64,000 bases of DNA from an uncultured Candidatus Saccharibacteria bacterium (GCA_964618955.1 CAZUBO010000002.1:1582-65581); one strand, 5' to 3'. Positions 22,260 to 54,538 are shown, numbered from the stretch's first letter. The notes: generated by a model from the letters alone, not told the origin. Made by a program: numbers and translations.

Positions 22260-22262
22260 CCT

Positions 22263-24152: not shown

Positions 24153-25452
24153 AATTAAAAAGATAATTAATGAATCAAAGACATTAGTTAATATATTTTT
24201 TACTTTTGGAGCTAGAATTCTAAAAGCTTTAACGATTTTTGTATTAATGATATTAGTAGCTAGGAAGTTTGGACCCGAAGGTAAGGGAATTATTACTATG
24301 GCTTTGTTCTTGCCAGACTTTTTGTATTTCATGATGCATTTAGGATTAGGAAATGCTAGTATATTCTTTATTAGTAATTCGAATGAGGATGAGAAGACAA
24401 TATATAATAATTCGGTATGACAGGGGTTGGGGTTGAGTATATTAGCGATAACTATCGTATTAGTGTTAAGATTAGTTAATCCTAATGTATTAGGAATTGG
24501 ATTTCCTACTTCTTTACTATATATTGCTTTAGCGATTGTACCGTTTTCTTTTCTAGAGACATTCTTTGAGAATTTGTTTGCTGGCAAACAAGAATTTCGA
24601 ATCTTTAATGGGATTATAATCTTGGATAGAATAGCATTGATAGTTGTAATGCTAGTTGCGTTTTTAAAATACAATATTAGTTTGAATTTTGTATTGAGTT
24701 TGATATTTATTAATTTGATTCTTCAAGTTACTACATATTTTGTTTTGTTAGTTAGAAGATACGGATTACCAAATATATTTAAATTCAATACTGGATATTT
24801 TAAGAAAGCAATTGACTTTGGATTTAGATCGTATTTGGCTTGTTTTTTATGCTATTTGGTATTGAGGTCAGACTTATATATGTTATCCGTTATGAAGGGA
24901 GTAAAGGATGTTGGATTGTATTCGGTAGCAACTAACTTTATTGACGCCATGCTACTATTATCAGGAAGTGCTTCAGCTGTTATCTTTCCTTTGATTAATA
25001 GGAACATATCTAGAGCTGGATATTATATCAAGAGGTTTACTAGCTTAATTTCTTTGGCTTCTTGTGGTATAATATTATTGACATTAGTATTTGGAAGACC
25101 TTTTATTAGTTTATTCTTTGGCCTTGAATTTGTATCAGCAAGTATGCCACTATATATATTATTGATTGCAATGTACTTCTGATCGCTATTAAGTATTCTG
25201 ACTCAATTCTTTGCTGCGAAGAACTATCCATGGAAGGCAGTATATATATGAATACCAGGGATAGTACTCAACATTGTGATAAATTGGATTTGAATACCTA
25301 GGTACGGAATGTTAGCTGCAGCTTGATCATCAGTCATTGCTTATGCTTTAACTTTCTTCTTACATTTTTGGTTGATTCAAAAGTATGAGAGAATTAAATT
25401 AAAAGAATTAATTTTTCCTTGAATAATTAAAACAAATCATGAACAAATTTAA
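24130..25452 (+). CDS. Wzx-like polysaccharide flippase (MOP superfamily)
   Basis: About 12 predicted TM helices. ORFs 24130 and 24427 are in frame, and the C-terminal part is restored through several TGAs. Overlaps both neighbours (operonic). Confidence 0.75.
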
Positions 25453-26188
25453 TATATCTGAGAATAGTTATGGGCATAAAAAAAGATTAGATTTTATTAA
25501 GGAGCAGATTATAAAATACTGTTTAACAAATAGTTTGGATGCTTTTAATATTAGAATGTTAGATGTTGGGTGCGGTTCGGGAACTTTAGTAACTTTACCT
25601 TTAGGGGAAGAAGGATTCAATATCTTGGGAATTGATTTAGATCAAACTTCTATTGATTTTGCTAGAATACAGAATATCTTTAGAAATGTCAGTTTTGAGA
25701 AAAAGACAGTTGAGGAAGTTGAAGGGGAATATGATATAGTACTAGCTTGTGAGATACTAGAACATTTAGAAAGACCAGTTGAATTCTTAAAGACATTGAG
25801 TTCAAAATTAAAAACTAATGGTATTTTAATTCTAACGACTCCTAATGGATATGGGTGATCAGAGAAGGAAGGAGATTTGGTTAAGTGATTGGGTAAGAAT
25901 TTGTTAATTAGAAGAATAATTAATAAATTCAAAAAACATTCACAAGATATTACTTTAAATGAGTCAGATAAGCATTTACAGAAGTTCAGCTATGAATTAT
26001 TACTAAATATCTTTAATGATTCAGGATTGAAAGTTGTTGGTAGTAAGAATGGTCCGGTATTTGGTGGACCAATAATCGAAAGAACTTTTGCAAGATTACC
26101 GTTATTCAAGAAGACTTCTAATACATTAGGAGATATCTTGCCTTCAAAGATGGCTTTAGTATGATATTTTGTTTTAAAAAAATATTAA
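25439..26188 (+). CDS. Class I SAM-dependent methyltransferase
   Basis: LDVGCGSG motif I, acidic motif II (GIDLD), ACEILEH. Joined across TGAs at 25856, 25886 and 26162. Confidence 0.8.
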
Positions 26189-26196
26189 TTTTAAAT

Positions 26197-26970
26197 ATGG
26201 ATATTAAAAAAGACATACAAAAATTCTGAAATTCAAAACCTTGTGGGACTTTTGGGAATATACCAGAAGAAGCTAGTATTGAATACTTTAATAGAATCAA
26301 AGAACGCCGATATCGTTTGGAGCCTTTTATCTTAGATATTGCTAAGTTTAGTGAATATACTGACAAGAAGGTACTAGAGATTGGGTGTGGTATTGGTATG
26401 GATGGGATTGAATTTGCTAAGGCTAAAGCTGATTATACTGGAGTTGATCTATCGGACCAGTCTATTTCCTTATGTAAAAGGCATTTTGAGTTGTTTTCCC
26501 AAACTGGGAATATATTAAATATCGATGCTGAGAATTTGCCTTTTCCTGATAATACTTTTGATTTAGTATACTCCTGAGGAGTATTACATCATATACCAGA
26601 TATGCAAAAAAGTATTAATGAAGTTTATAGGGTATTAAAGCCAGGAGGGAAAATTGTTATTATGATATATAACAAATATTCGTTAGTTGGGTTGCAACTA
26701 TACTTGGTTTATGGATTATTGAAGTTTAAGTTTTTCAAGAAATTCAATGATTTGTATTACAATTGCCACGAGAGTGTGGGGACAAAGGCTTTTACTGATT
26801 TAGAGAGTAAAAAAATGTTTAATGCGTTTAATGATTTAAAAGTCTTTAATATTGTAACACCATATGATGTTAGAATTACTAGGAATAGATTCTTACCAAG
26901 AATATTTCAAAAGTTAGTTCCAAGTCGTTTTGGATTCTTTAAGATAATATTGGGGAATAAAAAAAAATAA
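26197..26970 (+). CDS. Class I SAM-dependent methyltransferase (second, type 11-like)
   Basis: F-W-NSKPCG N-terminal motif, LEIGCGIGMDG motif I, FDLVYS-W-GVLHH. Three track fragments are in one frame. Confidence 0.8.
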
Positions 26971-26971
26971 T

Positions 26972-28774
26972 ATGTTTGTAACAAAGACAAGAATTAAAAA
27001 ATTATTGAAAAATCCTTTAGGAGGATTAATGTTTTTAAATCAATTTTTTAAGTCTTTAAAATTAAAGAATTTGAAAATTAAGAATGTTAAATATATAGAA
27101 AGTGTTTGACATTCATTAATTAATAATTCGGAATTTTTTAATTTTGTTATTGACAATAGTAATCCTTTTGAAGGGAAGGTTAGAATTTTTGATAAGGAAG
27201 TTAGTATTGATGAGATTGATTGGAATCGAGACTATTTTAATAATTTTCCAATAAAGAGGGACTACTATTTTAATTTGAGAGAATGAATAATTAAGAATAG
27301 TTTTAAAGGTTTTGATATTAAGAATGTTTGGGAATTATCTCGAGGATATTTCTTAATTGATTTGGCTAGTTTATATTACAAGACTAAAGACGAAAAGTAT
27401 TTAGAAGAATACCAAAAGATAATACTAGAATGAATTAAACAAAATCCATATTTGTATTCTAGCAATTGAACTAATCCAATGGAAGTAAGTGTAAGAATAA
27501 TTAATTGAATTACTAGTTTTCAAATTATTAATAAGGATGGTGTTAAATTTAATGAAGAATTTTTAAATATTTTTTTCAATCATATGAATTTAAGTTTTAA
27601 TTATTTGATTAATAATATTGAAACTTATCCTTTCAAATCAAATCATTATATGATTGATAATTTAGGAATATTGGTTTTGAGTTTGTTTTTGAATTCGAAA
27701 GATAAATGAATTCAAAAAAGCTTTAATAACCTATTGAAGGCTGAGTTCTCGCAATTTGATAGTGATGGGGTTGATTTTGAGAATTCAAGCAATTACCAGG
27801 TTCTAAAAACAGAGGCTTTAATGATGGCGTTTTTGATGTATAAGCAGAATTTGAATAAGCTAGAGAATGTTATACAGCTTGAAGATAGATATCTAGAGCA
27901 ATTAAGTAAGATTTTTGAATTTTCAATTCATTTGTTTAAGAATGAAGGTACTTTTTTGGCTGGTGATAATGACGAAACTGAGGTTTTGAGATTGCCTTTA
28001 AAGGCTAAGTTAGAGAAACTGTATTTAATGATGTTTGGAGATAAGGTTGATTTAAATAATAGCAAGATATATTTTAAGAGTGGTTATGGATTCTTAAGAA
28101 ATTCAAAATTCAATATTTTACTCTTAAGAGCTAATAATATTAGGAGTAGTCACTTCCATAATGATTTATTGAGCTTTCAATTAGTATATGGGGGTAAAGA
28201 CTTTTTTATTGATAGTAATACTTTTAATTACAATACGGATAAAGAGAAGAGGGTATCATACTTAAGAACTCAGAGCCATAATACTTGCTTTGTGAATAAT
28301 ATTGAACAAAGTAGGATTGAAGCTAATGATGCATTCTTAAGGAATAAATCTGTAAGATCAATATGCAAGAAGTCTAACGTATCGAGTACTCGAGATGAGA
28401 TGACTTTAGAAACTAAATACAATAATTTTTCACATTTGAGATCTTTGATATTTAATAAAGAACAGAACAAATTAAGTATTTTTGATACTTTCAATGGGAA
28501 AGTAAAATCTATTGAATGAAATTTGTTTTGTCCTAAAGAAGTTAAGGTATACAATAATTTAACTTTGAAGAATGTTTTGATTTTAGAGAATGATGGCTTA
28601 AAATTAATTTTGGAATTACCAGAGACTTTGAGTTACACTTTGAATAATGCTTTTGTATCTCCGAGATACAATACTGAAGAGATTGGAACTAATATAAAAT
28701 TAAAATTTGAAAATAAAAATAATATATCAAACTTATCATTTCAAATTGTTATCAAAGAAAATTATTTAAATTAA
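26972..28774 (+). CDS. Heparinase II/III-like (alginate-lyase superfamily) protein
   Basis: 600 aa restored from ATG 26972 through many TGAs. VWELSRGYF and NW-TNPMEVSVRIINW motifs in the N-domain. HFHNDLLSF and H-rich C-domain. Confidence 0.75.
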
Positions 28775-28778
28775 ATGT

Positions 28779-29978
28779 ATGAAGATATTAATTTATAGTC
28801 AATACTTCTATCCAGAGACTAATGCTCCAGCTAATCGTTTAAACGATATGGCTAGGTATTTAGCTAAAGGGAACAAGGTTTCGATTTTGACTGGATTTCC
28901 GAATCATCCTTTAGGAAGAATGATTGGGGAATACAAAATGAAATGATTAATGAAGGATACGGTTGAAGACATGGATGTTTATAGAAGTTTTTTGATTATT
29001 CCGAGGAAGACAAATTCAAAAATATATAGATATCTAAATTACTTTAGTTTTGCTTTTTCAAGTTTTTTGAATTTGTTTAGAATTGAAAAGCCTGATTTAA
29101 TGATTGTAACTAGTCCACCAATAAGTGTTTTAATCTTAGGATATATTTATGCTAAGATAAGGCATATACCATTAGTTATTGACTTAAGAGATTTATGACC
29201 TGAAGCAGCTATAAGTCTAAAGGTAGTTAAGAAGGGATTCGTTATTAATTGCTTAGAAAAATTAGTTGCTAAAGCATATATGTATTCTAAAAATATAATT
29301 ATCAATACTGAAGCCTTTAGGGACGCTTTGGTTAGTAAGTACGAGATTATGAATTCTAAGATTACATACATTCCTAATGGATTTGATATTGAAGGGAATT
29401 TAGAATTCAAAAAAGAATTTGTTGATGAGGGGGAATTCAAAATCTTTTATTCGGGATTGTTTGGTTGAGCTCAGAATGTTGATTTGATTATTGAGACAGC
29501 TAAGATCTTTAAAGACAAAGGTTCTTTAGTTAAATTTGTTTTGATTGGTGATGGGCCTTTGAAGGAAGCTTTGAAAGACAAAGCTTTGAAGTATCATTTA
29601 AATAACTTAGAGATTCTTGATTATCAAAAGAAAGATAATTTGTTCAAGATAATCAGTGAATGTAACTTAGGATTAATAACTTATGAATTAAATGATACTT
29701 TTCGTAAGAATATTCCTTCAAAGATCTTTGACTATATGTTTTTAGAGAAGCCGGTAATAATAAACTTAGAGGGGGAAGCTTCAAGAATAATAGAAGATGG
29801 TAAGTTTGGATTCTGTTATGAAACTAATGATCCTGCTAAGTTATGTAATAGAATTGAAGAGATTCTAACCACTATGGATTTAAAGACTAGAGGTAATAAT
29901 GGCTTTGAATATTTGAAGGCCAATTTCGATAAGAAGGAATTACTTAAAAGATTAGATAAGATATTAGAAGTTGAATAA
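28779..29978 (+). CDS. GT4 glycosyltransferase, WbuB-like
   Basis: MKILIYSQYFYPETNAPANR N-terminus is typical of WbuB-type GT4. Four fragments are in one frame. C-terminal E-x7-E region. Confidence 0.8.
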
Positions 29979-30217: not shown

Positions 30218-31240
30218 ATGGATGTTTTGTATTATCTAAATGTATTTTGAAATAACAATATTGTTCAAGGTTTGATGGCAATCTTGGGAGCTATTGTTTT
30301 AGCTTTTGTAATTGATTATTTAATTTGATTCTATGTTAAGAAGTTTACAACTAGAACCCATACTCATATTGATGATTTCTTAGTGAATGTTTTAACAACA
30401 CCAATACATTGGATAATTATAATCTTAGGAGCCAAGAAAGCTTTTTTGAAGATCTTTAATATTGTATTAACAAAGAATGTTGACCTATACTATCGTATTG
30501 CGATTATAGTTTTAATAGCTTATGTGATATCTAGATTATTATCATTCTTTATTGGCCATTGATTAAAGGTTCAAAAGCAAACTAAAAAAATACCACAATA
30601 CATTAGTAATATAGTAGGAGTGGTTGTATTTTTAATTGCTTTGATGGTTGTAATGACAATGCTGAAGATATCTATAGCTCCATTACTAACCAGTTTTGGT
30701 ATTGCTGGAGTTTTGATTGGTTTATCATTACAAAATACCTTGGTGAATTTTATTGCTGGATTGAAGATAATATCAGAAGAGAAGATTAAAATTGGAGATT
30801 TTATTGATGATGGCGTTAGTATTAAAGGCGTAGTAGAAGATATGAGTTTGAATTCAACTAAAATAAGAAATTTGAATAATAATATCATTATTGTTCCTAA
30901 TTCAAAGATATCAGATAATCCAATAACTAATTATTCTAGGAATGATAGCAAGATTAGAGTAGTAGTTCCTATAACCTTGGTTATTGATAAGCCTTTAGTC
31001 GAGATGAAGAAGAAGTTAAATTCAATTGTTTTAGAAGTATTTGAAAGCATGGAAGGGATTGATAAGAAGCATGTTCCAGAAGTTTGAATAATCAATGCTG
31101 GACAAGCTAGTTCTATGACTCAGCCAACAGCTACTTTTAATGTCTTAATTACAGTAGTAAGTTACAAATATCAATTTGGAGTAGCTGATGCGATATTAGA
31201 GAAGGTTAGTAAAACATTTTGAAAGTATCAACATGAATAA
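30218..31240 (+). CDS. Small-conductance mechanosensitive channel (MscS family)
   Basis: N-terminal TM helices, pore helix LLTSFGIAGVLIGLSLQNTLVNFIAG, beta domain GDFI..G.V.D. Restored through TGAs from ATG 30218. Overlaps the next gene by 8 nt. Confidence 0.85.
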
Positions 31241-32474
31241 ATTCAAACAAAGTTTTACATTAGTAGAATTAATGATAGTAATAGCAATCTTAGCAATATT
31301 ATCTGCTATTGTAATTTTTGCATTAAACCCAGCCAGACTCTTTGATAACTTTAGAGATTCAAAAAGAGTAACTGATATATCTAGTATTAACAAAGCTATT
31401 GTATTCATGGAATCTTGAAATCAATCAGGTATTACCTATGGTACTACAACTAATGTATATATCTCTCTACCTGATTCAAGTTCTACTTGTAGCTCTTACA
31501 CACTTCCAACTCTTCCTACTGGATATACATATTACTGTTCTAATGCTACAAACTACAAGAATACTGATGGAACTGGTTGAATACCTATCAACTTTACAGT
31601 AGAAGGATCTAATAGATATCTATCAAGTCTACCAGTAGATCCAGTCAATAACAATTCTTTCTTCTATACCTACTATTCAGGAGGATCATATGAATTAACT
31701 GCAATACTAGCTAATCCCAATAAGAACTCTATTGATGACGAAGGAAGTCTTACATCAACCTTTGAGATTGGTAGTCCTAACCGAACATGGAATACACCGC
31801 TACAGAGGGATAAAGGATTGGTACTATACTACAATTTCAATGAAGCAAGTGGCAATGCGCAAGATATGTCGGGGAATGGATATACAGGAACTCTTAACGG
31901 GCCGGTCAGACAAACATTAGTTGGAACTGATCAATCGATGTATTACGATGCCAGTTCCTCAGATTATATCTCAACTCCTAGTTTTGCAATTCCTAATACG
32001 GGGATATTGACGATAGAGGCGTGGATGAAGAGTGTGGGTGCGGATAAGTATCAGTTTATATTAAGTGATGCATCTTATAATGAAATGTCTGGTTTTATAT
32101 ATATGGATAGACCAGTTAATACTAATAGTCTTTTGTATCTGTATGCCAACGGAACAGTATCGGCAGAGTCTTTGTTTACTAACTTCTTTCAAAGTTTAGA
32201 CAATCAATGACTCCATATAGTTATAGTTTGTGATTATACAAATAAAATAGGAAAAGCGTATAGAAATGGGGTTCAATTTGGAACTACTCAAAATCTTACT
32301 GGTGTGCCCGTATTTCCTTCGGTTGGTAGAGTTAAATATATTGGCGCATATAGTAGTGGCGCTTATAAAATCACCGATGGTTCTCTTGATGAAGTAAGAA
32401 TATATAATAGGGGATTGAGTGCGGAGGAGATATCAGCCCAGTATACCTCGACAAAAGGCCATTATGGCTACTAA
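31233..32474 (+). CDS. Type IV pilin-like protein fused to a LamG/concanavalin-A-type lectin domain, paralog 1 (413 aa)
   Basis: N-terminus KQS-FTLVELMIVIAILAILSAIV (prepilin-type methylation motif with E5). C-terminal LamG signature DGSLDEVRIYNRGLSAEEI. Three in-frame TGAs. I hand-translated it end to end. Confidence 0.85.
31247..32474 (+). repeat. Pilin-lectin repeat unit, copy 1 (most divergent)
   Basis: Aligns by eye, nucleotide for nucleotide, with 35779.. and 40777.. over the first 750 bp or so, and again over the last 100 bp or so. Confidence 0.85.
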
Positions 32475-32533
32475 ATAGGCCTTTTGAAGGCTAATTTAGC
32501 TAGTAAATACGTTGGTTTTTAAGGCTTAAATTG

Positions 32534-32570
32534 GAAATACCCTAGTAAATACTAGGGTATTTCAATTTTA
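32534..32570 (+). terminator. Strong terminator after pilin paralog 1
   Basis: 13-bp perfect stem gaaataccctagt / actagggtatttc with loop aaat, then aatttt. Confidence 0.75.
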
Positions 32571-32598
32571 GCCTGTTTTTAGTTATCCACAGACCCTA

Positions 32599-32644: not shown

Positions 32645-33196
32645 ATGAAAGATTTTTTAACTATTATGGATACAGGCGGGGGTTCAAAAGCTAAATTGAA
32701 CCTTACATCCAGTAAAATCTGATCACTATTCATTAACAAGCGTAAAAGCTTATTAATGGTAGCGTGTATGGGTTTATTCTTAAACCTAGGTCAAGCTGGA
32801 TTTTTATCTCTTAACGAAGCGTCATCTGTAGTTGTTCCTTTCCAAAGCGGTTATTCCTACAATGCTTTATTCTTAAAGCCTGTTGGAACTCAACCCAAGA
32901 ATACCTCACCAGTTAAAATAAAAGTAACAATCACGGCCTATTCTTCTACAATTGAACAATGCGATAACGATCCTTTCGTTACTGCATCTGGTCATCCGGT
33001 TGAAGAGGGTATCATTGCTGCTAACTTCTTGCCTTTTGATACAAGAGTTAGAATCCCGGCAATCTACGGTGATAGAGTATTCGTTGTGAAGGACAGGATG
33101 AACCAAAAGTATAACAATAGAGTAGACGTTTGATTTGGTGATACAAAAGAAGCAATAGACTTTGGTGTCAAATCAACGTTTATCGAAATATTTTAA
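32645..33196 (+). CDS. 3D-domain (MltA/RlpA-like double-psi beta-barrel) cell-wall protein
   Basis: N-terminal hydrophobic anchor, then VTITAYSS..QCDNDPFVTASG..IAAN..RVRIP..VKDRMN, typical of 3D domains. Two in-frame TGAs. Confidence 0.75.
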
Positions 33197-33291: not shown

Positions 33292-33999
33292 ATGTTAACA
33301 ACTTTAGGAATTGTATTGAGTAAAAAAGATGTTGGAGAATACGATAGAGAGTATTGTTTTTTTACAAAGAATTATGGTAAAATAAAACTAATAGCAAAGT
33401 CGGTAAGAAAGCCATTATCGAAATTAAGCGGACAATTAGAACCACCGTCTTTGATTGAAGTTGTATTTGTACCGAACAATGATAAGGGATTGATTACTAC
33501 AGCATTAGTTAAAAAGAATTATTTAAAAGTTCGAAGAATACTAGAAAAACAAAAGACATACAATACTATAGTAAGAACTATTGAAGAATTAACTGAATAC
33601 AAACACAAGGATTTAATAATGTGAGGATTATTAAAAAATACAATTGATAATTTAAATAATTATGAATGGAAGTTAATTGAAATTGATTTTCTGGCAAAAT
33701 TCTTGAAAGTCTTAGGATTCTCACCGAATGTTGAACATTGTATTAAATGCCAAAGGAAAATTTTAAATGAAGTTAATATATATTTTGATAATGAACATTG
33801 GGGATTCTGTTGTGAGAAATGCAAAAATATTAAGAATGAAAAAGTAACATTACAAGTTTTTAAGATTCTATCAATTTTATTAACATTACCTTTAAAAGAG
33901 ATTTTGAATAGGGAATTGGATGAGCCAATATTAATTCAATACAAAAAAATACAGAGTTTGTTAAATAAGTATTTAAAACAAATAAAAAAATATTTTTAA
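33292..33999 (+). CDS. recO: DNA repair protein RecO
   Basis: OB-fold N-terminus (GIVLSKKDVGEYDREYCFFTKNYGKI), C-terminal zinc module CIKC..x..CEKC. One in-frame TGA at 33622. Confidence 0.8.
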
Positions 34000-34009
34000 A
34001 AAATACAAT

Positions 34010-35743
34010 ATGGGAATAAAAAATAGCCAAAACAAATTGTTTGCTTTAGGAATGATCACAACTATTATTCTAATAGTTGGAGGATATTTTGCTTGAAAAC
34101 TACTAACTCCTGGGAGTGTGAATTTTTCAATTGAAAGTCCTAAAGAGATTAAGTCAGGCGAGACACAAAAGATTAAATTCATTTGTGAGAATAATACCAG
34201 ACTAATTTTAGCTAATTCCCAAATTAAAATTAAATTACCAGACAATGCTTTTGATATTGATTACAGTCAAACTCCAACAATACTGTTAGGAGACGTAGCT
34301 CCAAAAGAAAAGATTGAAAAAGAAATTGAAGTAGTCTTCTATGGAGTTACGGGAGACAAGCCAAAGATTGAAGCTTCATTTGAATACAAGCCTCAAGGAT
34401 TCTCTTCAGTCTTTAAAAAAGACCAAGACTTTAGTATGTTGATTAATGGTTCAAGTATTAGTTTGAACATTACTAATCCAAACCAAGTTTTGCCAGAGAC
34501 TCCTTTTGATATGGGGATTGCTTGAACCAATCAAGCTAAAAAAGATTTTGAGAATTTGGTAGTAAAGATTAATTACCCAGCAGAATTTAATTTCAATTCA
34601 AGCGATCAAGAAGCTATAAGAACTGATAATACTTTTGATTTAGGTTTTGTTAGATCGTTTGAGCAGGGGAATATCAATCTTTCTGGATTCATGAATAGCC
34701 AAGGAGGAGAGAATAAGAAATTCGAAGTTTTGATAGGGATAGAATTAAAAGACATGAAGAAATTCTTTGTAATTAATAAATCGGAATCAGTAGTATCGTT
34801 AGTAAGTAATCCTTTGAGTTTAAACGTAAAGGTTAATGATGTAAGTACTTATTCAGCTAGTATTGGCGAGATGCTGCATGTAAGTTTGGATTACAAGAAT
34901 AACTATAATGTGCCTTTGAATAATATGGTATTAAAAGTTGTATTTGATGGTACATATTTTGATTACAAAAAGTTAATACCTAATAAAGGATATTTTACTT
35001 TTGGTAATAAAACTATTACTTGGAATGAAGTCCAAATACCAGAATTAGCAACACTAAATCCAGGAGAAGGGGGAAATATTGAATTCTCAATACCAGTAAC
35101 TGATAAATTCAATGTAAAGACATATGCTGATAAGAATTTGAAATTGAATATCAATGCTATAATAGAAAGCTTAACACCAGTTCAGGGATTGGATGTAAAT
35201 TCTAAAGTCAAAGCTAGTAGTAGCGCTATGGTGAAATTAAATGCCGATATGAATGTAGAAATTACTGGATTCTTTACTGACAACAAAACTACAATAAGCA
35301 ATTGTGGAAGCTTACCTTTAAAGGTTGGCCAGAAAACTTGTTATACCGTACATATGAAGATTAAGAATTATTTGAATGATGTAAATAATATATTGATTAC
35401 TACTGACTTACCTTACTATGCAAACTATACTAATAAATTCACAACAAGTTATAGCAATGCTGATTTTACTTTCGATACGTTTTCAAAGAAATTGATTTGG
35501 AAGCTAGATAGTTTACCAGCTAATTCCGGAGTAATTACAAAACCTTATGAATTAGTATTCCAAGTAGAAGTAGCTCCGACAACAAATGAAGCAAATTCAG
35601 CTATTCCGATTATAAATTCAACGAGTATGTCAGCTACTGATTCATTCACTCAGAATAAGATTAGTAAGACTTACAAAGAATTAATGTCAAATAATATCGG
35701 GGATGCATTAACTAATTCGGGATATGGCAGAGTAACTGAATAA
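34010..35743 (+). CDS. Hypothetical N-terminally anchored surface protein (577 aa), beta-rich
   Basis: ATG 34010 is in frame with ORFs 34118 and 34556, joined by TGAs. One N-terminal TM helix, then repetitive beta-strand-like sequence. No family recognised. Confidence 0.6.
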
Positions 35744-35770
35744 TATATATTAAAGATTAAAAAAAACAAT

Positions 35771-37009
35771 ATGCAAAAACAAAGTTTTACATTAGTAGAA
35801 TTAATGATAGTAATAGCAATCTTAGCAATATTATCAGCTATTGTAATTTTTGCATTAAACCCAGCCAGACTCTTTGATAACTTTAGAGATTCTAAGAGAG
35901 TAACTGATATATCTAGTATTAACAAAGCTATTGTATTCATGGAATCTTGAAATCAATCAGGTATTACTTATGGTACAACAACAAACGTATATATATCTCT
36001 TCCTGATTCAAGTTCTACTTGTAGTTCTTATTCATTACCAACTCTTCCTACTGGATACAATTATTACTGTAGTAATCCTACAACGTATAAGAATACTGAT
36101 GGTACTGGCTGAATACCTATCAACTTTACGGTTGAAGGATCCAATAGATATCTATCAAGTTTACCTATTGATCCAGTCAATAATTCTTCTTTTTTTTATA
36201 CCTACTATTCAGGAGGATCCTATGAATTAACTGCCATACTATCTAATCCCAATAAGAACTCCATTAATGATGAAGGAAGTCTTACATCAACCTTTGAGAT
36301 TGGTAGTCCTAATAGAACATTTAATACTCCACTACAAAGAGATAAAGGATTAGTATTATACTATGACTTCAACGAAGTATCTGGTAATGCCCAAGATCAT
36401 TCAGGGAATGGATATACAGGAACTCTTAATGGACCAGTTAGACAGACATTAGTTGGAACTGATCAAGCAATGTACTACGATGCCAGTTCCTCAGATTATA
36501 TTTCAACTCCTTCTTTTGCAATACCTGATACTGGAGTACTTACAATAGAAGTGTGAATGAAGAGCAAACTTGATACTACACATCATCAAACAATATTAGG
36601 CGATGCTAATCAAAACTCATCAATTAGTTATCTTTTTTTTATTAGATACGCGAATACAAATGTTTTATATTATGAATATGCTAATGGAACAGTTATAGGC
36701 ACTGTTAATTTTGCTAATTTTTTTCAAAACTTAGATGATCAATGAATCCATATAGTAGTAATTTGTGATTATTCAAATAAAACATTAAAAGCATATAGAA
36801 ATGGAATTCAGTTTGGAACTACACAAAATCTTTCGGGAACCCCACAATTTCCGTCAATTAACAGAGTAAAATATATTGGTACTTGATCGGGCTCTTCGCA
36901 TAAACTAACTGATGGCTCCCTTGACGAAGTAAGAATATATAATAGAGGGTTGAGTGCCGAAGAGATAGCGGCCCAGTATACAAATACAAAATCTCACTAT
37001 GGACAATAG
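35771..37009 (+). CDS. Type IV pilin-like / LamG lectin fusion protein, paralog 2 (412 aa)
   Basis: Same architecture as 31233. QKQS-FTLVELMIVIAILAILSAIV ... DGSLDEVRIYNRGLSAEEI. In-frame TGAs include the one in the WMKS motif. TAG stop at 37007. Confidence 0.85.
35779..37009 (+). repeat. Pilin-lectin repeat unit, copy 2
   Basis: Near-identical to copy 3 over about 750 bp, including a 233-bp block (36245..36477) that I found identical base for base to 41242..41474. Confidence 0.9.
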
Positions 37010-37056
37010 CATAAAAATGTTCTAGAATATTAATACATAATAAATAAAATACAAAT

Positions 37057-38385
37057 ATGAAAGCCAAGCAAAATCAAATGGAAAAATTAGTAGCCTTTTT
37101 AAAGGATAACGGATTTATCAATCTATCATCAGAACCTTATGGTGGGTTCTCAAGTTCGTATGATTACGGCCCTTATGGAGTTGAAGTAAAAAACAATTTG
37201 AAAAAGGCTTGATGAGATACTATGACAAAAGAATTTGATAATATTGTAGGGATTGATTCTTCAATATTAATGTCTCCTAAAGTATGAGAAGCTTCGGGAC
37301 ATTTAACTGCTGGCTTTGCTGATGAATTAGTTGAATGTAAAGAATGTCATAAGAGATTCAAGGCTGATGAATTAGAGAATGAAAAATGTCCAAGCTGTAA
37401 GGGGGAATTATCAGCTCCAAAGAAATTCAATGTAATGATGAAGACTTTTGTAGGACCAATCGAAGATAGTGCTAATATTGTATATTTGAGAGGAGAAGCT
37501 TGCCAGGGAATATATATGAATTTCTTATGAGCAAAGAATTCAGCTAGAATGAAAATACCTTTTGGTATTTGTCAGATTGGAAAAGCTTTTAGAAATGAAA
37601 TTACTCCTGGACCGTTTACTTTTAGAACCAGAGAATTCGAGCAAATGGATTTACAATTCTTTGTACATCCATTTGAAGCTGATAAATACTTTGAATTCTG
37701 AAAAGAGCAAAGAATGAATTACTACTTGAAGTTAGGAATTAGTAAAGGCCATTTGCGTTTTACAGATCATCCTGAAAACAAGTTAGCTCATTATGCTAAG
37801 AAGGCTTGTGATATTGAATATTTGTTTCCTTTTGGATGAAGCGAGATAGAGGGAATACATAATAGAACTGATTGAGATTTAGGGAATCATTCTAAGGCTA
37901 GCGGAACAGACTTATCATACTTTGATCAAGAGACAAAGGAGAAGTATATGCCATACATTATCGAAACTTCTGCTGGATGTGATAGAACTTTGTTAGCATT
38001 CTTATCAGAAGCCTTTGTTGAATTCGAAAAAGGTAGAAATGAAGATTCCGAAAGTACTGAATACTTGATGAATTTGAATAAGAAATTAGCTCCAGTTAAG
38101 GTAGCTATAATGCCTTTGATGAAGAACAAAGAAGAATTGCAAAAGAAGGCTAGAGAGATATATGATAATTTAAAGTTTGAATTCAATACTAAGTTTGACG
38201 ATAGTGGATCTATTGGAAAACGCTATCGTAGAATGGATGAGTTAGGAACTCCTTATTGTATTACAATTGATTTTGATACTTTGACTGATGATTGCGTTAC
38301 CGTTAGAGATAGAGATACAATGAAGCAAGAAAGAATTGAAATCAAAGAATTAAAAAATTTCTTAAGAGAAAAATATGCTTACTAA
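37057..38385 (+). CDS. glyQS: Glycine--tRNA ligase (alpha2 / GlyQS type)
   Basis: [26 protein letters not shown] (TGA TGA at 37210..37215), [42 protein letters not shown]-terminal anticodon-binding domain in ORF 37948..38385. Confidence 0.93.
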
Positions 38386-39682
38386 ACATTTAAGTAAAAT
38401 ACCTGATAAATGTGAGTTTGAAAAATATGTTTTAAAAAATGGATTGGAAGTTGTTTTAATTCCGATTAAGAATGTGTTTTCAGTTGATGCAAAGTTGACA
38501 GTTCGAGTTGGGTCACAATACGAAACTAAAGAATTGAGTGGAATATCTCATTTCTTAGAGCATATGAATTTCAAGGGAACTAAAAACAAACCTAATCATG
38601 CTTTGCTAACTAAAAGCATTGATGAGAATGGTGGATTACAAAATGCTTCTACTGGGTATGATTTTACTTCGTACTACGCACATATTGGTTTTGAATACTT
38701 AGAATGTATATTAGACTTCTTATCAGATATATTTGTAAATTCAATATTTCCAGAAGAAGAATTTCAAAAAGAAAAAGGAGTAGTTATTGAAGAGATTAGA
38801 ATGTATGAAGATCTTCCTAGAGTTAAAGCCGAAGAATTAATGTTAGAAGCTCTATACGGCGATCAACCTGCCGGAAGGAATATCGCTGGAACCGAAAAGA
38901 ATATTTTAAATATGAATCGATCGCAGATGGTTGCTTTTTATAAAAAATATTACCATCCGAAGAATGCTACTTTGTTTGTAATGGGTAATTTTGATAATGC
39001 TCAAACTAAAAAATTAATTAAAAAATATTTTGAATTTGAAGTTAAGACAAAAGAAATTAAATATCCTAAAGCCAAATTATTGATTGATGGACCTAAAGTT
39101 AATTCTGGAGCCAAAGACTTAAAAGAAACTCACTTTGTCTTAGGATTTAATGCTTTTAAGCCAGGGGATAAGAGAAATGCAATATTATCAGTAATTAATG
39201 GTATTTTGTCTGATGGTTTTAATAGCAGACTCTATCTAAATGTCCGAGAGAAGCTAGGTGGAGCTTACTATATCACTAGCGGGGTAGACAAGATATTTGA
39301 TAGAGGAGTTTTCTCGGTATTAGCTGGAGTAAATACAGCTAAAACAAAATTAATCTTAAGTGAAATTATTAAAGAATTAAGGATTTTGAAAAACGAATTG
39401 GTTAAGAAGGAAGAATTAGAGAAGACAAAGAATCGTATTGTAGGATCAATTCTAATGTCATTAGACGATCCTTATACTATTGCGGAACCAGCTTACGAAG
39501 CTATAACTTTTATGACTAAAGTAGAGACTTTCAAACAATACATTGATGCTATTATGAAGGTTACTGATAAAGATATCATGAAGATTAGTAAAGAATTGTT
39601 TAATGTGGAAAATATTAAGATGGGAGTAGTATCGAAAAAACAGGATGCTAAAGAGTTGAAGGATATAATCAAAACAATTTAA
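38375..39682 (+). CDS. M16-family (insulinase/pitrilysin-like) zinc peptidase
   Basis: HFLEHMNFKGT inverted zincin motif (HxxEH) and a downstream EE region. Uninterrupted 435-aa ORF overlapping the glyQS end by 11 nt. Confidence 0.88.
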   Translation: MLTKHLSKIPDKCEFEKYVLKNGLEVVLIPIKNVFSVDAKLTVRVGSQYETKELSGISHFLEHMNFKGTKNKPNHALLTKSIDENGGLQNASTGYDFTSYYAHIGFEYLECILDFLSDIFVNSIFPEEEFQKEKGVVIEEIRMYEDLPRVKAEELMLEALYGDQPAGRNIAGTEKNILNMNRSQMVAFYKKYYHPKNATLFVMGNFDNAQTKKLIKKYFEFEVKTKEIKYPKAKLLIDGPKVNSGAKDLKETHFVLGFNAFKPGDKRNAILSVINGILSDGFNSRLYLNVREKLGGAYYITSGVDKIFDRGVFSVLAGVNTAKTKLILSEIIKELRILKNELVKKEELEKTKNRIVGSILMSLDDPYTIAEPAYEAITFMTKVETFKQYIDAIMKVTDKDIMKISKELFNVENIKMGVVSKKQDAKELKDIIKTI

Positions 39683-39704
39683 TAATTCTTTTAAATTAAA
39701 AACT

Positions 39705-40733
39705 ATGGAAAGAGAAATACATATTTCTTTTAAAAGCTTATGAAGAATCTGCTTTGTCGGATTGATGGTTTTTGGATTAATATATTTTAGACAAATTCTA
39801 TTGATGTTCATGGCGTCTTTAATTCTATCAGCTTCAATGGAGAATATTATTAATTGGTTTGAATCTAAAAAAATCCCCAGAATATTTTCAGCTATTTCAG
39901 TATATATTTTATTAATTTTTATAATTGTTGGTTTGGTATATATTATCTTTCCACCTTTGTTTCAAAACATATTAAGCTTGACTGGAGAATTGCCAACAAT
40001 GCTAAAATCTAGTACCACTTCAAGATTTTTTAAGAATTATTTACCGTTTATTAATAACAAGAGTTTATTGACTAATGCTTTTACGACTGATAATACTTTT
40101 AGTTACGTCGGGAATTTAGTTAAGAATTTATCAAGAATTGTTTTAGGATTATCTAATTTCTTCTTAATCATCTTAGTAGCTTTTTATTTGTCTTTGGAGA
40201 GAAGATGATTTAAGAATATGCTAGAGATGTTCTTGCCTCAGACTTACAAAAAGTATTTTATTAGATTATGGGAGAAGGCAGAAAACAAGATGGTATTCTG
40301 ACTATATAGCCAGATTGCTTTGAGCATGTTTCTAACTAGTATGGCTATAATTATCTTCTATATCATGGATATCCCATATCCATTATTATCAGCTATTATC
40401 TTAGGGTTATTTGATTTTGTACCTTTTATTGGACCAATAATTGCTACAGTTGTTATTGTATTTATTAATATGGATGGGGTTACTAAGTCAGGGATACTAT
40501 TAGCAGTATGTTTAGGATTACAATATATCCAAAATATTTTTGGACCATATATTAGAAGCAAATTCTTGAAAGTTGATCCAATAGTTACTTTATTTTTTAT
40601 TGCTATCTTTGGAAAGTTTGGTGGGGCTTTAGGGGTATTTGTCGCTATTCCGTTATCAACAACTATTGTTGAATTTTTGAAGGATTTAACTAATGAAAAG
40701 ATTTGCGATGAGAGATTTAAAAAATTAATATAA
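39705..40733 (+). CDS. AI-2E family transporter (PerM/YhhT-like permease)
   Basis: About 8 TM helices. GLFDFVPFIGPIIA signature. Fragments 39762 and 40320 are in frame with ATG 39705 through TGAs. Confidence 0.8.
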
Positions 40734-40767
40734 TATGCTAGAATATATTAAAATTAAGAATTAAATA

Positions 40768-42006
40768 ATGCAAAAGAAAAGTTTCACATTAGTAGAATTA
40801 ATGATAGTAATAGCAATCTTAGCAATATTATCAGCTATTGTAATTTTTGCATTAAACCCAGCCAGACTCTTTGATAACTTTAGAGATAGTAGAAGAGTAA
40901 CTGATATATCTAGTATTAACAAAGCTATTGTCTTCATGGAATCTTGAAATCAATCAGGTATTACTTATGGTACATCAACAAACGTGTATATCTCTCTTCC
41001 TGATTCAAGTTCAACTTGTTCAACATATTCATTACCAACTCTTCCTACTGGATACAATTATTACTGTAGTAGTCCTACAACATATAAGAATACTGACGGT
41101 ACTGGCTGAATACCTATCAACTTTACAGTTGTTGGATCCAATAGATATCTATCAAGTCTTCCTATTGATCCAGTCAATAACAATTCTTTCTTCTATACCT
41201 ACTATTCAGGAGGATCCTATGAATTAACTGCCATCCTTTCAAATCCCAATAAGAACTCCATTAATGATGAAGGAAGTCTTACATCAACCTTTGAGATTGG
41301 TAGTCCTAATAGAACATTTAATACTCCACTACAAAGAGATAAAGGATTAGTATTATACTATGACTTCAACGAAGTATCTGGTAATGCCCAAGATCATTCA
41401 GGGAATGGATATACAGGAACTCTTAATGGACCAGTTAGACAGACATTAGTTGGAACTGATCAAGCAATGTACTATGATGCTTCTGCCAGCGACTATATCT
41501 CAACTCCTTCTTTTGCAATACCTGATACAGGAATACTGACGGTAGAGGCGTGGATGAAGAGTAAAATACAAGCTTCCATTTATCAATCAATAATAAGTGA
41601 TTATAATGAAAATCCTACAATAGGTTTTTTATGAATATTTAGAGCTATAAATTCAGATAACATTGTTATAGAATATTCCAATGGTACTATAAGCACTTCT
41701 ACGGGTTATTCCAATTTTTTTCAAAATCTTGATAACCAATGGATCCATATAGTAATAGTTTCTGATTATACCACTAAAACAATGAAAGCATATAGAAATG
41801 GAGTTCAATTTGGGAATACTATAAGTCTTACGGGTATTCCACAATTTCCCTCAACCAACAAGGCAAAATTTATGGGATCTTATGATCTTACAAGACACAA
41901 ACTCACCGACGGTTCCCTTGATGAAGTAAGAATATATAATAGAGGGTTGAGTGCGGAGGAGATAAGTGCTCAATATACAAATACAAAGTCTCGCTACGGA
42001 CAATAA
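40768..42006 (+). CDS. Type IV pilin-like / LamG lectin fusion protein, paralog 3 (412 aa)
   Basis: QKKS-FTLVELMIVIAILAILSAIV ... DGSLDEVRIYNRGLSAEEI. ORF 41782..42006 is its C-terminus. TAA stop. Confidence 0.85.
40777..42006 (+). repeat. Pilin-lectin repeat unit, copy 3
   Basis: See copy 2. Diverges from copy 2 mainly between about 41555 and 41735. Confidence 0.9.
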
Positions 42007-42030: not shown

Positions 42031-43530
42031 ATGAATAAGAAACTATTTGTAACATGTGCGTTACCATACATCAATGCTGAACCTCATTTAGGTCATGTGT
42101 TTGAATTTATTCAAGCTGATTGTTTTGTAAGATTCCATAAGATAATAGTGGATGAGGTATATTTTACAGCTGGGACGGATGAAAACAGCTTGAAGAATAT
42201 CATTGCTAGCAAAGAAAATGGGGTTAGTATTAAAGACTGATTAGATCAGAAGTCAAATTCATTTTTGAAGTTGAAAGATGATTTTAAAATATCTTTTGAT
42301 GATTTCATTCGAACTTCAGAAGAGAGACATCACTTAGGAGCTCAGAAGCTCTGAAGCGCTATGGACAAGAATGATATTATCAAGAAGAATTATGAAGGGC
42401 TATATTGTGTTGGATGCGAAACATTCTATACGGAAGACGAATTAGTTGATGGCTTATGCCCAGAGCATAAGAAAGCACCAGAAAAGATTACGGAAGAGAA
42501 TTACTTTTTTGTATTGAAGAATTACCAAAAGTTTTTAATTGATAAGATTGAGAAGAATGAATGAAAGATTATGCCAGAAAGTCGTAAGAATGAAATGCTA
42601 AGTTTTATTAAAGGAGATCTATTTGATGTGAGTGTCACTAGAAGTAAAAAGAGAAGTGAAGGATTGGGAATTGAAATACCAGAAGATAAAGACCAAGTAT
42701 TATGAGTTTGAATCGATGCATTATCAAACTACATTAATGTTTTGAATTATGGATTAGAAGATACTTCTTTATTTGAAGAATGATGAAATAAGAGTGACGA
42801 GATATGGCATTTCTTAGGTAAGGGAATTTTAAGATTCCATGCAGCTTTTTGACCAGCATTCCTAGAATCAGCTCAGGTTAGAATCCCAACTCATTTATTC
42901 TGTCATGGATATATTACTTTGAATAATGAGAAGATGTCTAAGTCTTTAGGGAATAGTTTAAATCCAAGAGATTTATTAGTTAAATATCCGGTGGATTCAA
43001 TACGATATTATTTAATGAAGGATATTCCTTCAGGAGATGATGGAGATTTTAATGAAGTTAATTTGACTAATAGACATAACAATGAATTATGTGCTTCTTG
43101 AGGGAATTTGGTTTCTAGAGTATTAGCTTTAGGAGAACAATACCAAAAGCCAATAAAGTTGAATTCTAATGAATTGAAATCTGAAATTGAAGTTGCAATT
43201 AAGAATTATACTGAATGTTTTTCGAATGTAAAGATTAATGACGTTGTGAGTGTTTGTTTTGATTTGATTGCCAAAATCAATAAATACATTAGTGAACAAA
43301 AGCCTTGATCATTGATAACTAGTTCTGAATCTGACTTTGAAAGAATAATTTCAAGTTCTTTATATGGCGTTATATATGCTAATATGCTATTATCAGCCAT
43401 AATGCCAGATAGTAGTTCAAAGATATTTGATACTCTAGGAATAGAAGCTAAGAATTTGAAAGACTTAGAATCAATTAATGGTAGAGAATTCAATCTTAAA
43501 AAACCAGAGAATTTATTTAATAGAATTTAA
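42031..43530 (+). CDS. metG: Methionine--tRNA ligase (short form, 499 aa)
   Basis: PYINAEPHLGH (HIGH), zinc knuckle CVGCETF..CPEH, VL-W-V-W-IDALSNY, FHAAF-W-PAFL (TGA 42850), KMSKSLGN. Five track fragments are in one frame. Confidence 0.93.
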
Positions 43531-50098: not shown

Positions 50099-52378
50099 AT
50101 GTCTAAAAAAATAGCCAAAAAAATTCTTTTGATAATTCTTCTGGGTTTTATGATATTAGGAGGAGTTAGCGCTCCAGGAGTGAATTTCAAAGCTCCTAAA
50201 GCTGAAGCTTCTATTTTCAATTGAGTAGCACCTAAAAAAACAGCTGAAACTCCAGTAAAAGGAGACGATGGTACGAAAAAGAATTCTTGTAATACTTGTT
50301 TTGTGGCTGTTAAGACTGGCACAATATGAAATATGTTATCCGCTCCGATTGATACAGTCTTATCGCTTATACCTAGAATTTTAGTATTTGTAATAAAGTG
50401 AATTGTGATTCTTTTGGCAAAACTTTTACAAGCATTAATGGCTCCTCAAGGAGGCGGATTATTCTTTAAATTAAATCAGTTCATGCCAACTTACAATGAA
50501 GCAGGGCAACAAACTAGTTTTATATATTGACTTTGAAGTGTATCGCTTTATTACGCCAATATATTAATAACGTTATTTTTAATTTGAATTGCTATTAATA
50601 TTATTTTGGAGAAAAAAGAATATACCAATTACCAAAATTTAATTAAATTGGTAGGAGTTGCTTTATTAGTTAATTTCTCCTTAGTAATATGTGCGGTATT
50701 TGTAGATATATCTAATTTTATAGCAACTTTATTTATGTCAAATATCGCTATGAATTCTTTTTCTTGTATGTATGCTTGTACTATCCATAAAGTGGCAAAT
50801 ATTTTTAATTGTAAACAAGATAATATGATATTTTCTTTGACAATTTCTAATAGCTTAGCATTAATGGTTGGATTGGTATTTGTTGGACAAATATTAGGAT
50901 TGATTATGTATGTACTTACTCGTATGGTTTATTTATGATTTTTGGTTGGCATATCACCAATTGCTTTTGTATTATCAGCTATACCAGAAACAAGAAAATA
51001 TTACAAACAATGATCTGATTTGTTTATAGCTAATTTGACTAAATTACCAGCATTAGCATTTGCTTCATATTTTATTTTAAATATGATGATCTATATTTCA
51101 AATAATTATATGATGAGTACTGATACTGCTAATACAAATTGAATGCAAAACATATTGGGAATGGGAAATAACACAGCTAGCGAGAATCTTTGAATTTCAA
51201 CTTTAGGAATTGTTTTTATATTATTTATATTATCACAAGCTTTATTAATGGTGGCTCAAAACTTAGGAGTAGAACAGATTTCCAAAGCTTCAGCATTTGC
51301 AACAGGCTGAGCTAAAAAAGGGTGAGATGCAGTGAAGAATCCTACTATGAGCTATGGAAGAAAGAAATTACTTAGTTCGAAGCCAATGCAAAGTTTTACA
51401 AAGACTCTTACTGGCAGTAAAATAGCTCCTCTAACAAGGCTTGGAAACAAAGTCGCTGATCAAATGACTAGGGAACAAAAGAAATCTCAAGGCGAAATTA
51501 ATTACTGAAAAGAAAACTTGAATGCTGGTATGCTTGAGAGAATTGTTAATGACAACAAGAGCGCACGAGGAGATAAAACAAAATTCTTACAAGCCATCCA
51601 AGCCTTGTCAGAAATGCAATCAAAGGGTGATTATAAAGATCCTGGGGTTGGGAAAAATAAGATTAAAATTTTGGATAATCCAGAGAATATGAGTATGGTA
51701 AAGAATTTGGTAGCTGACGATTTATATGGAGAGACTGATGCGGGCAAATTCATGAAGAAGCGTTATACTTGAGTGAAGGCTGGTCCAAAATCAGAAGATT
51801 ATAAGTCTGCAGCCGAAAAGATCTTGGGAACTGGTGCATCTGAAGCTGCTCTTAATAAGAAAATGGAAGAGTTGGCCTTTAGCGCCCCATATTATGATGC
51901 CGCTAGTTTTAAGGGTGGTAAACTAAGAGATGAGCTCTATGGAAGAGCTACTGACCAAGACAAAGCCGGTCTAAATGATTGACACGCCGAAATCAAACAT
52001 CTTTTTGATGCTAGTAAAACTAACCCTGATCCTGAAAAATTTGCCGAAATGTTTCAATTATTTCAAAAAACAATTAGCGCCAAAAAGATGCAATTGATTT
52101 TTAACAAACTACCTAATGTTCAAAGAGCAACATTTTGAGATATGATTGCCAGAATGGCTATAGTAGCGAAGAAAGTTAAGGATAAAAAGCTTGGAAGCAA
52201 TAACCTAGATGCTGAATTCACAAATATAAAACCTGACGAAATATACAATGATGCCGAAGACGCATTGAGCGAATTGGCTGGTGGACAACAATACAGCTGA
52301 ATGGCTACTCCTAAAAACGCGGACTCCCTTTCTTTTGCTAGATCTTTGCGAGATAATGATTTTATAAAGTTAAAATAA
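50099..52378 (+). CDS. VirB6/TrbL-like polytopic membrane protein with long soluble C-terminal extension (759 aa)
   Basis: Signal/anchor, then at least 6 hydrophobic helices rich in TGA-encoded Trp, then about 350 aa of hydrophilic sequence. The assignment rests on topology and on its position directly upstream of VirB3/VirB4 homologs. Confidence 0.5.
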
Positions 52379-52387
52379 AATAACTAT

Positions 52388-53383: not shown

Positions 53384-53447
53384 ATCAATTTTTATTGATA
53401 ATTTTTTGGTTTTATGTTACATTATATCTAATAACTAATTTAATATT

Positions 53448-54528: not shown

Positions 54529-54538
54529 AAAAACAAAT

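Follow-up and report, generated by a model that had tools for sequence, protein, structure and literature searches.

Why should two paralogous genes be identical over 233 bp in the middle of their coding regions, when the very next base on either side already differs? The question is raised by a stretch of 64,000 nucleotides (nt) from an uncultured Candidatus Saccharibacteria bacterium [GCA_964618955.1; CAZUBO010000002.1:1582-65581], called the window below, which contains three pilin-lectin genes on the same strand. In each of them a 'handle' of ~195 amino acids (aa), which comprises the prepilin leader, alpha-1 helix and pilin head, is joined to a LamG/ConA-like lectin 'head'. We refer to these genes as c1, c2 and c3 in their order along the window (coordinates are collected in Table 1). 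An earlier note on this DNA had pointed out the identity between c2 and c3 and had taken it as evidence for ongoing gene conversion. With a probability of about 80%, we regard the three genes as old paralogs whose 5' 0.7-0.8 kb have been homogenised by gene conversion, and the 233-bp block as the most recent tract.

Base-for-base comparison confirmed the perfect identity of 36245-36477 with 41242-41474 over all 233 bp, with a mismatch at the next base on either side. With an offset of 4997 the 5' parts of c2 and c3 can be aligned gap-free; the earlier pairing of 35779 with 40777 was one base off. When identity along the two genes was checked by alignment, it was not uniform: the copies differ at 8/184 positions in 35777-35960, 25/284 in 35961-36244, 0/233 within the block and 18/83 in 36478-36560, which puts the difference in flanking 5' sequence at 9-12%. 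At the rate of the immediate flanks of the block (43 differences in 367 positions), 0/233 has a probability of 2.5e-13, and at that of all 5' sequence outside the block of 1.5e-10. The further statement that c1 is the more diverged copy is correct for 35961-36477, where c1 is 83-88% identical to the others and c2 and c3 are 91-100% identical to each other. It does not hold for the first 190 bp, where the pairs c1-c2 and c2-c3 both reach 95.8%, or directly 3' of the block, a stretch in which c3 stands apart.

In a run test of the GENECONV type, the variable sites were shuffled within the conserved part in 100,000 permutations. Runs of 34, 9 and 5 sites were reached or exceeded in 0, 27 and 226 permutations, respectively. 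The longest consists of 34 consecutive sites at 36262-36475 at which c2 and c3 agree and c1 differs (P <1e-5). The run of nine sites, at which c1 and c2 agree and c3 differs, directly adjoins the 3' edge of the block and marks its right breakpoint. The run of five, with c2 as the odd copy, points to a mosaic structure on the left side.

The number of synonymous substitutions per synonymous site (dS) between c2 and c3 is, in order along the gene, 0.11 (N-terminal 63 codons), 0.24, 0.02 (block), 0.74 and 0.93 (lectin core). Because it is so uneven, no single duplication date fits this gene pair. In the lectin core all three copies differ from each other with a dS of 0.9-1.3 and a nonsynonymous counterpart (dN) of about 0.3, and no long exact matches are found there. 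In their divergence the lectin cores equal orthologous housekeeping genes of a related species.

To place these values, related pilin-lectin loci (L003, L004 and L007-L009) were used for comparison; a search of genome contigs for relatives gave two distant hits only. The metagenome contig L004 carries genes for an M16 peptidase and an AI-2E permease (86% aa identity) followed by a pilin-lectin gene, the positional ortholog of c3 in a related species, and its flanking genes differ from those of the window with a dS of 1.4-1.6. As the position of c3 is kept in L004, the c3 locus predates the species split. In the lectin core (segment E, 36561-36900) the window copies are 60-65% identical to each other and L004 is 63-65% identical to c1, c2 and c3, within the range of about 55-70% for pairs across all loci compared. 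Since the cores are about equally distant for the paralogs and L004, the paralogs must have an age that at least roughly equals that of the species split. In the 5' segments N, B and C (35771-36477) the window copies are 83-100% identical among themselves and the L004 pilin is only 62-86% identical to them; the dS of the 5' part is 0.02-0.5 among window copies versus 0.5-1.3 to L004.

Of the three window copies, c3 is no nearer to the L004 pilin than c1 and c2 are, and the three group together in the 5' segments only. The 5' parts have been homogenised since the species split, which is the classical signature of concerted evolution. The same pattern is found in other sample pairs: L004 and L009 are 97.9% and 90.5% identical in the block region and 61% in the core, L007 and L008 are 99% and 94% identical and then 57% in the core, and L003a and L003b fall from 90.5% in the N segment to 66% in the next one. 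The proposal that recombination homogenises the pilin and stalk part is thus supported by four independent lines, namely the mosaic breakpoints, the dS gradient, the comparison with L004 and these other pairs.

Table 1. Positions of the pilin-lectin genes, their shared and divergent segments, and neighbouring genes in the window
Feature	Position	Strand	Description
Copy 1 (c1)	31233..32474	+	413 aa, pilin-like N-terminus and C-terminal LamG/ConA-like lectin; intact open reading frame only with TGA as a sense codon
Copy 2 (c2)	35771..37009	+	412-aa pilin-lectin paralog
Copy 3 (c3)	40768..42006	+	412-aa pilin-lectin paralog; positional ortholog of the L004 pilin (behind M16, AI-2E)
Identical block in c2	36245..36477	+	residues ~159-236: end of pilin head, linker 'SPNRTFNTPLQRDK', first lectin strands
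Identical block in c3	41242..41474	+	same 233 bp, exact identity
Tract c1=c2, c3 differing	36478..36496 (c1 31946-31964)	+	9 consecutive variable sites; 27/100,000 permutations (2.7e-4)
Patch c1=c3, c2 odd	36184..36196	+	5 consecutive variable sites; 226/100,000 permutations (2e-3)
Second long exact c2-c3 match	35789..35890 (= 40786-40887)	+	102 bp, signal peptide and alpha-1 helix region
Longest exact c1-c2 match	31365..31435 (= 35897-35967)	+	71 bp
Homogenised 5' module ('handle') of c2	35777..36560	+	c1 31245-32028, c3 40774-41557; gap-free, 78-100% identity
Variable lectin core of c2	36561..36900	+	c1 about 32029-32365, c3 41558-41897; 60-65% nt identity
RecO	33292..33999	+	between c1 and c2; Pfam RecO_N 3e-12, RecO_C 1.8e-11; genomic context, with no demonstrated role in the mechanism
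Genes between c2 and c3	37057..40733	+	GlyRS 37057-38385, M16 peptidase 38375-39682, AI-2E permease 39705-40733

The alternative that survives best is an assembly artefact, in which near-identical paths were merged and the perfect identity exists in no single genome; we keep it as a distinct possibility that falls short of even odds. It was weighed with two sludge-metagenome runs of one study (X1 and X2). Of the words in a 10-kb stretch free of repeats, 97-99% are present in them, so both runs contain this population. In each run an unbranched contig of 170 bp (36308-36477 = 41305-41474) ends exactly at the right edge of the block and forks into a c2-specific contig (36448-36955, 0 mismatches; 14.2x in X1, 10.2x in X2) and a c3-specific one that spans the edge (41445-41519; 7.7x and 7.9x). 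Because the shared path forks at the block edge in both assemblies, the path and the right breakpoint are real in the read data. The left edge of the block in c3 is spanned exactly by a contig with a depth of 226.7x in X1 (41184-41276), and the c1 version forms a separate single-copy contig from 31802 on (depth 16 in X1 and 10.7 in X2).

Several points weigh against our reading. Conversion is read here from sequence patterns; no RecA turned up in the window; and the donors could have been paralogs outside the window or other lineages, rather than c2 and c3. The population evidence consists of Logan contigs with bubbles removed, in which c2 and c3 are unphased. The 170-bp contig of X2 carries three clustered single-nucleotide polymorphisms (SNPs; 36355 A>T, 36356 T>C and 36391 C>T) in a population that has 97-99% of its words in common elsewhere, and its flanks show 0 mismatches. 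The depth of the shared contig (18.2 in X1, 13.2 in X2) is 17-27% lower than that of the summed continuations (21.9 and 18.1), and if each paralog carried its own variant, 18.4 and 13.5 would be expected, within 2% of the observed values. For c2 36198-36245 no X1 contig was found at an identity of at least 97%, and the X2 contig there has 2 mismatches; as this stretch is poorly reproduced, c2's left junction can be trusted less than its right one. An artefact is also favoured by the high copy number of the pilin 5' module in the community (240-1500x vs 15x) and by the many contigs of the Joint Genome Institute (JGI) that start or end inside the gene, at residues ~141-157. The assembler may have collapsed up to three real c2-c3 differences, and if three hidden SNPs are assumed the P value of the run test weakens to 0.033.

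Against this, the independent assemblies of X1 and X2 each give one unbranched 170-bp path that leads into c2- and c3-specific sequence, and only very similar paths collapse. In the worst case of 3/233 hidden differences, P is 1.3e-9 at the rate of the immediate flanks and 3.7e-7 at that of all 5' sequence outside the block, so that the density test remains at <=3.7e-7. Three kinds of evidence are independent of the block (the gradient in dS, the comparison with the ortholog, and the c1=c2 tract next to it), and the conversion reading would stand without perfect identity over 233 bp. Instead of a collapse, the SNPs could reflect two sub-populations, each with both copies alike, that is, concerted evolution caught live; the depth fits both. 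The word 'ongoing' in the earlier note is thus suggested by the three-SNP polymorphism of the block between two samples and is not proven.

Two other interpretations of the contigs were rejected. The X2 variant is not a tract derived from c1, which has A, C and G at the three sites where the variant has T, C and T. Apparent c2-c3 'joints' (e.g., 36789 to 41908) are not deletion junctions, being ~120 bp out of register and resting on 28-37 nt of short contigs; most likely they stem from other family members. It should also be noted that the lectin part of c3 (41445-41812) has a depth of 7.7-9.8x in X1, with flanks at 14.6-15.5x, and of 7.9-8x in X2, with flanks at 9.4-13.4x; at the c3 lectin head another allele may be present in part of the population. 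A second relative, roughly 10% diverged, is present at about 5x in X1, as seen from a contig over MetRS (42276-42685) with 41 mismatches in 410 bp.

A second alternative places the origin of the block outside this genome: handle alleles would spread among co-occurring related lineages through uptake of DNA followed by homologous recombination, and c2 and c3 would both have received the same widespread allele. In X1 the single-copy flanks have a depth of about 15x and the pilin 5' module one of 240-580x per 300-bp bin; exact 31-mers in the left part of the block peak at 1487x (36294-36309). This amounts to about 100 genome equivalents, more than the paralogs in a single small genome could supply. 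Raised word depth (240-1500x) was found at 35545-36441, 40628-41524 and also 31600-31790, in sludge and drinking-water metagenomes. The 5' module is common, in nearly exact form, to many genes and lineages of the community, and the contig that holds the left flank of c3 and the start of the block (226.7x, see above) fits an outside origin too.

Data from elsewhere agree with such movement. In X4, which belongs to an unrelated study, a 145-bp handle contig shows 1 difference from c2 (99.3% identity), compared with 7.6% in the housekeeping flanks (92.4% identity; P = 1.4e-4). Relatives in NCBI have N-terminal 195-aa alleles nearly identical to c1, c2 or c3 singly, on a different lectin start ('NLIAFWKFDE..' vs 'GLVLYY..' in all three window copies), and other relatives carry the same handle (about 70% identity) on C-terminal domains that are not LamG (P0048 and P0050; hits to PF03781 or PF09603). 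These data suggest that handle alleles also move between lineages. Bacteria belonging to the candidate phyla radiation (CPR) are, according to one report, naturally competent (PMC10187176), a further point in favour of an outside source.

Nevertheless, we consider it unlikely that the block itself arose in this way. The right 170 bp of the block occur at only 13-18x and are therefore specific to this population rather than community-wide, the 'GLVLYY..' lectin start of all window copies is absent from the closest NCBI relatives, and the N-terminal helix is under strong constraint at the protein level, which inflates its conservation. Still more doubtful, in our opinion, is a broader idea, in which the handle would be a community-wide portable homology anchor by which lineages of Patescibacteria swap binding heads (LamG lectins and other C-terminal domains) through DNA uptake and homologous recombination, between paralogs as well as between genomes. 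The abundance of exact handle 31-mers, the X4 handle contig and the occurrence of the handle on other C-terminal domains in relatives would be compatible with it. A separate observation concerns the locus L003:14426-15696, where a pilin-lectin gene contains a partial duplication of its own N-terminus ('KKSFTLVELM...KKSFTLVELMIVIAIL') that has the appearance of a scar left in the handle by unequal recombination.

A recent duplication of c2 and c3, followed by fast divergence of the lectin under diversifying selection and without recombination, is very improbable. It would agree with c2-c3 being the closest pair over 35961-36477 and with a somewhat higher dN/dS in the lectin core (0.26-0.31 vs 0.08-0.2 elsewhere). 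However, dS too, and not dN alone, climbs from 0.02 to 0.74-0.93 within one gene pair; directly past the block c2 is nearer to c1 than to c3; and the position of c3 is conserved in L004, so the locus is older than the species split. The homology between the copies sets in at the start codon or about 25 bp before it and does not go past the stop codon. As the flanks are unrelated, the repeated unit is the gene itself and not a segmental duplication. Least credible of all is a nucleotide-level selection (RNA structure, regulatory element or codon optimisation) that holds the block invariant, for which nothing specific speaks except that across the family the protein sequence of the 5' end is highly conserved, and which is excluded by c1 differing from c2 and c3 at 34 mostly synonymous block sites (dS 0.69-0.74; proportion of synonymous differences, pS, 0.45-0.47), the loci L004 to L009 likewise showing 15-35% differences in the block region.

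Returning to gene conversion between old paralogs, we suggest that the 5' 0.7-0.8 kb of the dispersed direct copies stay alike through homologous recombination that is non-reciprocal and acts repeatedly on short patches. This stretch extends from the leader and the alpha-1 helix through the pilin head and the linker into the first strands of the lectin. The block would be the youngest tract, exchanged between c2 and c3, and its right edge would be a true breakpoint at which c2 goes back to c1-like sequence. Pairing of the RecA type could take place on the exact matches of 233, 102 and 71 bp, which are long enough, since RecA-dependent recombination needs roughly 25-50 bp. Two causes, singly or together, would let the lectin core escape conversion: a divergence too great for pairing, and selection for differences in the parts that bind the ligand. 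We infer the RecA-type mechanism, the enzymes, the direction of transfer, its rate and its continuing activity alike.

The three genes are direct repeats, about 4.5 and 5.0 kb apart. Therefore a crossover between them deletes (or duplicates) the intervening genes and never inverts them, and the suggestion that such an event could cause an inversion has to be dropped. A crossover of c2 with c3 would delete GlyRS and other genes, so only conversion products would persist. The earlier note had also drawn attention to RecO between c1 and c2. Pfam supports this identification at 33292-33999; nothing that we found links its position to conversion, and the position is probably a coincidence.

The nearest analogues among known systems are the Hop adhesins of Helicobacter pylori, pilE/pilS of Neisseria and concerted evolution of the tufA/tufB type. 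The Hop adhesins of H. pylori (babA/babB/babC and sabA/sabB) are full-length genes at dispersed loci that undergo intragenomic gene conversion. The window copies resemble them as full-length, individually expressible surface adhesin genes at separate loci, with conserved ends as recombination substrates, a divergent ligand-binding part and non-reciprocal mosaics. In contrast to the H. pylori proteins, those of the window are type IV pilin fusions and not outer-membrane beta-barrels; it is mainly the 5' two-thirds that are homogenised, no phase-variable repeats were seen, and the organism is a Patescibacterium with no known animal host. Dispersed duplicates such as tufA/tufB and the rRNA operons evolve in concert by recurrent gene conversion. 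As in these duplicates, the paralogs within the genome are closer than orthologs, and essential genes between them select against crossovers. Those genes, however, are homogenised over their full length and serve one function, whereas here homogenisation ends inside the gene and the remainder is hypervariable.

Antigenic variation of pilin in Neisseria proceeds non-reciprocally between pilE and pilS through a RecF-like pathway that includes RecO (PMC2188579, PMC3547852, PMC13463697). Both systems concern type IV pilin genes with a constant N-terminal and a variable C-terminal part and non-reciprocal transfer between dispersed copies. Unlike the silent cassettes of Neisseria, the three genes of the window are complete, with start codon and leader; it is the conserved part that is homogenised, the variable part was not seen moving, and there is no evidence of a programmed high-frequency switch. 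No G-quadruplex (G4) motif of the form (G3+N1-7)x3 G3+ occurs on either strand of the whole window. With complete copies, no G4 and an exchange of the conserved part, a system of the Neisseria type was rejected. The same applies to a target of a diversity-generating retroelement. Self-comparison of the window gave only the three pilin copies and one palindrome, with no repeat of the template/variable (TR/VR) type, the lectin-core differences extend beyond any single short region, and no reverse transcriptase was recognised among the subset of open reading frames (ORFs) examined.

Phages have modular receptor-binding proteins, in which a conserved N-terminal anchor bears an exchangeable C-terminal binding domain. 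The likeness lies in the conserved handle as a homology anchor followed by a variable binding head; in the window, by contrast, these are cellular chromosomal genes without phage context, and head swapping can be proposed from protein architectures only. A further system to compare is that of the minor pilins PilX1 and PilX2 of Saccharibacteria, which have extra C-terminal domains and of which PilX2 is needed for host binding (PMC12206443). They too are CPR type IV pilins with a 'lollipop' fold, a C-terminal globular domain, a non-canonical leader and a proposed role as pilus adhesins, with a beta-propeller at the C-terminus instead of the LamG jelly-roll found here. That paper (PMC12206443) makes no mention of 'paralog' or 'recombination', and in the literature searched nothing was found on gene conversion between pilin paralogs in CPR bacteria. 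A paper on 'hypervariation' in a Gracilibacterium was rejected as a precedent; it deals with a tandem PTD repeat, a different phenomenon.

The designation of the genes as pilin-lectins is well founded. All three are full-length ORFs with ATG, leader and stop codon, and the start codon of c1 overlaps the stop of the MscS-like gene upstream. PF07963 (N_methyl) matches each copy above the cut-off (E 1.5e-7 to 6.5e-7, c1 1.5e-7), and PF13385 (Laminin_G_3) matches each over profile positions 3-151 of 151 (E 6e-20 to 9e-21, c1 9e-21). The prepilin motif K-Q-S|FTLVELM has the Glu at +5 of type IV pilins. At the cleavage site (31245-31260, 35777-35792 and 40774-40789), Ser occupies position -1 (K-Q/K-S|FTLVELM) in place of the canonical Gly, and the family consensus at this site likewise reads 'KSFTLVEL'.

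An AlphaFold2 (AF2) model of c3 has a mean predicted local distance difference test score (pLDDT) of 89.3 and a predicted template modelling score (pTM) of 0.82. It consists of an alpha-1 helix at residues 8-60 (8-28/31-60), a beta-sheet pilin head (72-178), a jelly-roll (194-390) with strands of pLDDT >90 and a helix at 396-410. In Foldseek searches the jelly-roll resembled lectin-like receptor-binding subdomains with a probability of 1.0 and E of about 1e-11, a likeness at the level of fold only (14-19% identity). The head of a type IV pilin usually contains a disulfide. Among 74 homologs Cys84 and Cys100 are invariant and residues 1-225 and 376-405 conserved, and the hypervariable residues 226-375 form the family-wide entropy peak. 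From these features we infer that c1, c2 and c3 encode adhesins displayed on pili. Type IV pilins are processed by a PilD-type peptidase and assembled by a PilB/PilC machine; within the 64 kb of the window, no gene could be recognised as one for pilus assembly.

The genetic code is a prerequisite for recognising these genes. The earlier note had considered translation table 11 adequate; ORF calling with it splits the pilin-lectin region into short ORFs, and three long ones appear when TGA is read as sense. Table 11 was rejected on this ground and because TGA proved to be Trp, and table 25 (TGA=Gly) because TGA falls in near-invariant W columns of the pilins and GlyRS. TGA stands opposite TGG in the alignment of the three paralogs, and its columns in the pilins are near-invariant W in distant homologs that use the standard code. 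GlyRS (37057-38385) has 7 TGA and 0 TGG codons, and 6/7 are in columns with W in 100-109 of 109 homologs. The long ORFs of the window hold 144 TGA vs 31 TGG, and a tRNA-Trp(UCA) is not among the 8 tRNAs of the window. On the evidence of these alignments, TGA is Trp in this genome (table 4), neither stop nor Gly, and the genes are intact only under this reading.

GlyRS groups the organism with Patescibacteria of the Paceibacteria/Minisyncoccia type. The first cases of UGA-to-Trp recoding in Patescibacteriota, in the class Minisyncoccia, were described in the gTranslate preprint of May 2026 (10.64898/2026.05.24.727570); earlier recoding surveys entered CPR under UGA=Gly only. UGA=Trp in the present genome, outside the UGA=Gly clades, matches the cases of the preprint.

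The three copies lie among housekeeping genes, and the gene order is MscS-like channel, c1, a 183-aa protein, RecO, a 577-aa membrane-anchored protein, c2, GlyRS, M16, AI-2E, c3, MetRS and SmpB. The 183-aa protein (32645-33196) has no Pfam match and looks 3D-domain-like by eye. No further pilin-lectin copies or partial copies were found in the window by tblastn and self-blastn. Directly downstream of c1 lies a 53-bp palindrome (32522-32574; 89% self-complementary), probably a terminator; c2 and c3 have no counterpart of it and run straight into GlyRS and MetRS.

Other parts of the window contain a cluster resembling surface-polysaccharide biosynthesis genes (20148-29978), with a heparinase II/III-like protein assigned by Pfam (26972-28774) and, by eye, an asparagine-synthase-like protein, methyltransferases, a flippase-like membrane protein and a glycosyltransferase. 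At 50099-58212 lies a type IV secretion-like cluster; its TraG/VirB4-type P-loop ATPase (54539-56323; PF19044, 1.6e-26) is flanked by large membrane proteins and small proteins without a Pfam match. At 61086-63942 dnaA (61086-62558) and dnaN (62827-63942) were recognised by eye from their translations, and this end of the window is probably the replication origin region.

The events proposed here involve no new mechanism. They represent a familiar mode of evolution of a surface-protein family, in a little-studied lineage. Concerted evolution of the handle explains why metagenome assemblies break at these genes and how phylogenies of CPR pilins built gene by gene can mislead. It also points to targets: the variable core residues ~240-375 for binding specificity, and the three polymorphic sites of the block for conversion in natural populations. 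If the handle did serve as a portable anchor across the community, it would be a system of host-range diversification that resembles the way in which receptor-binding proteins are shuffled in phages. Attachment to other microbes is the way of life of Patescibacteria, and type IV pili belong to the small number of structures with a demonstrated role in it. Thus, a hypervariable lectin core on a handle that recombination keeps uniform and competent for assembly is a plausible determinant of host recognition.

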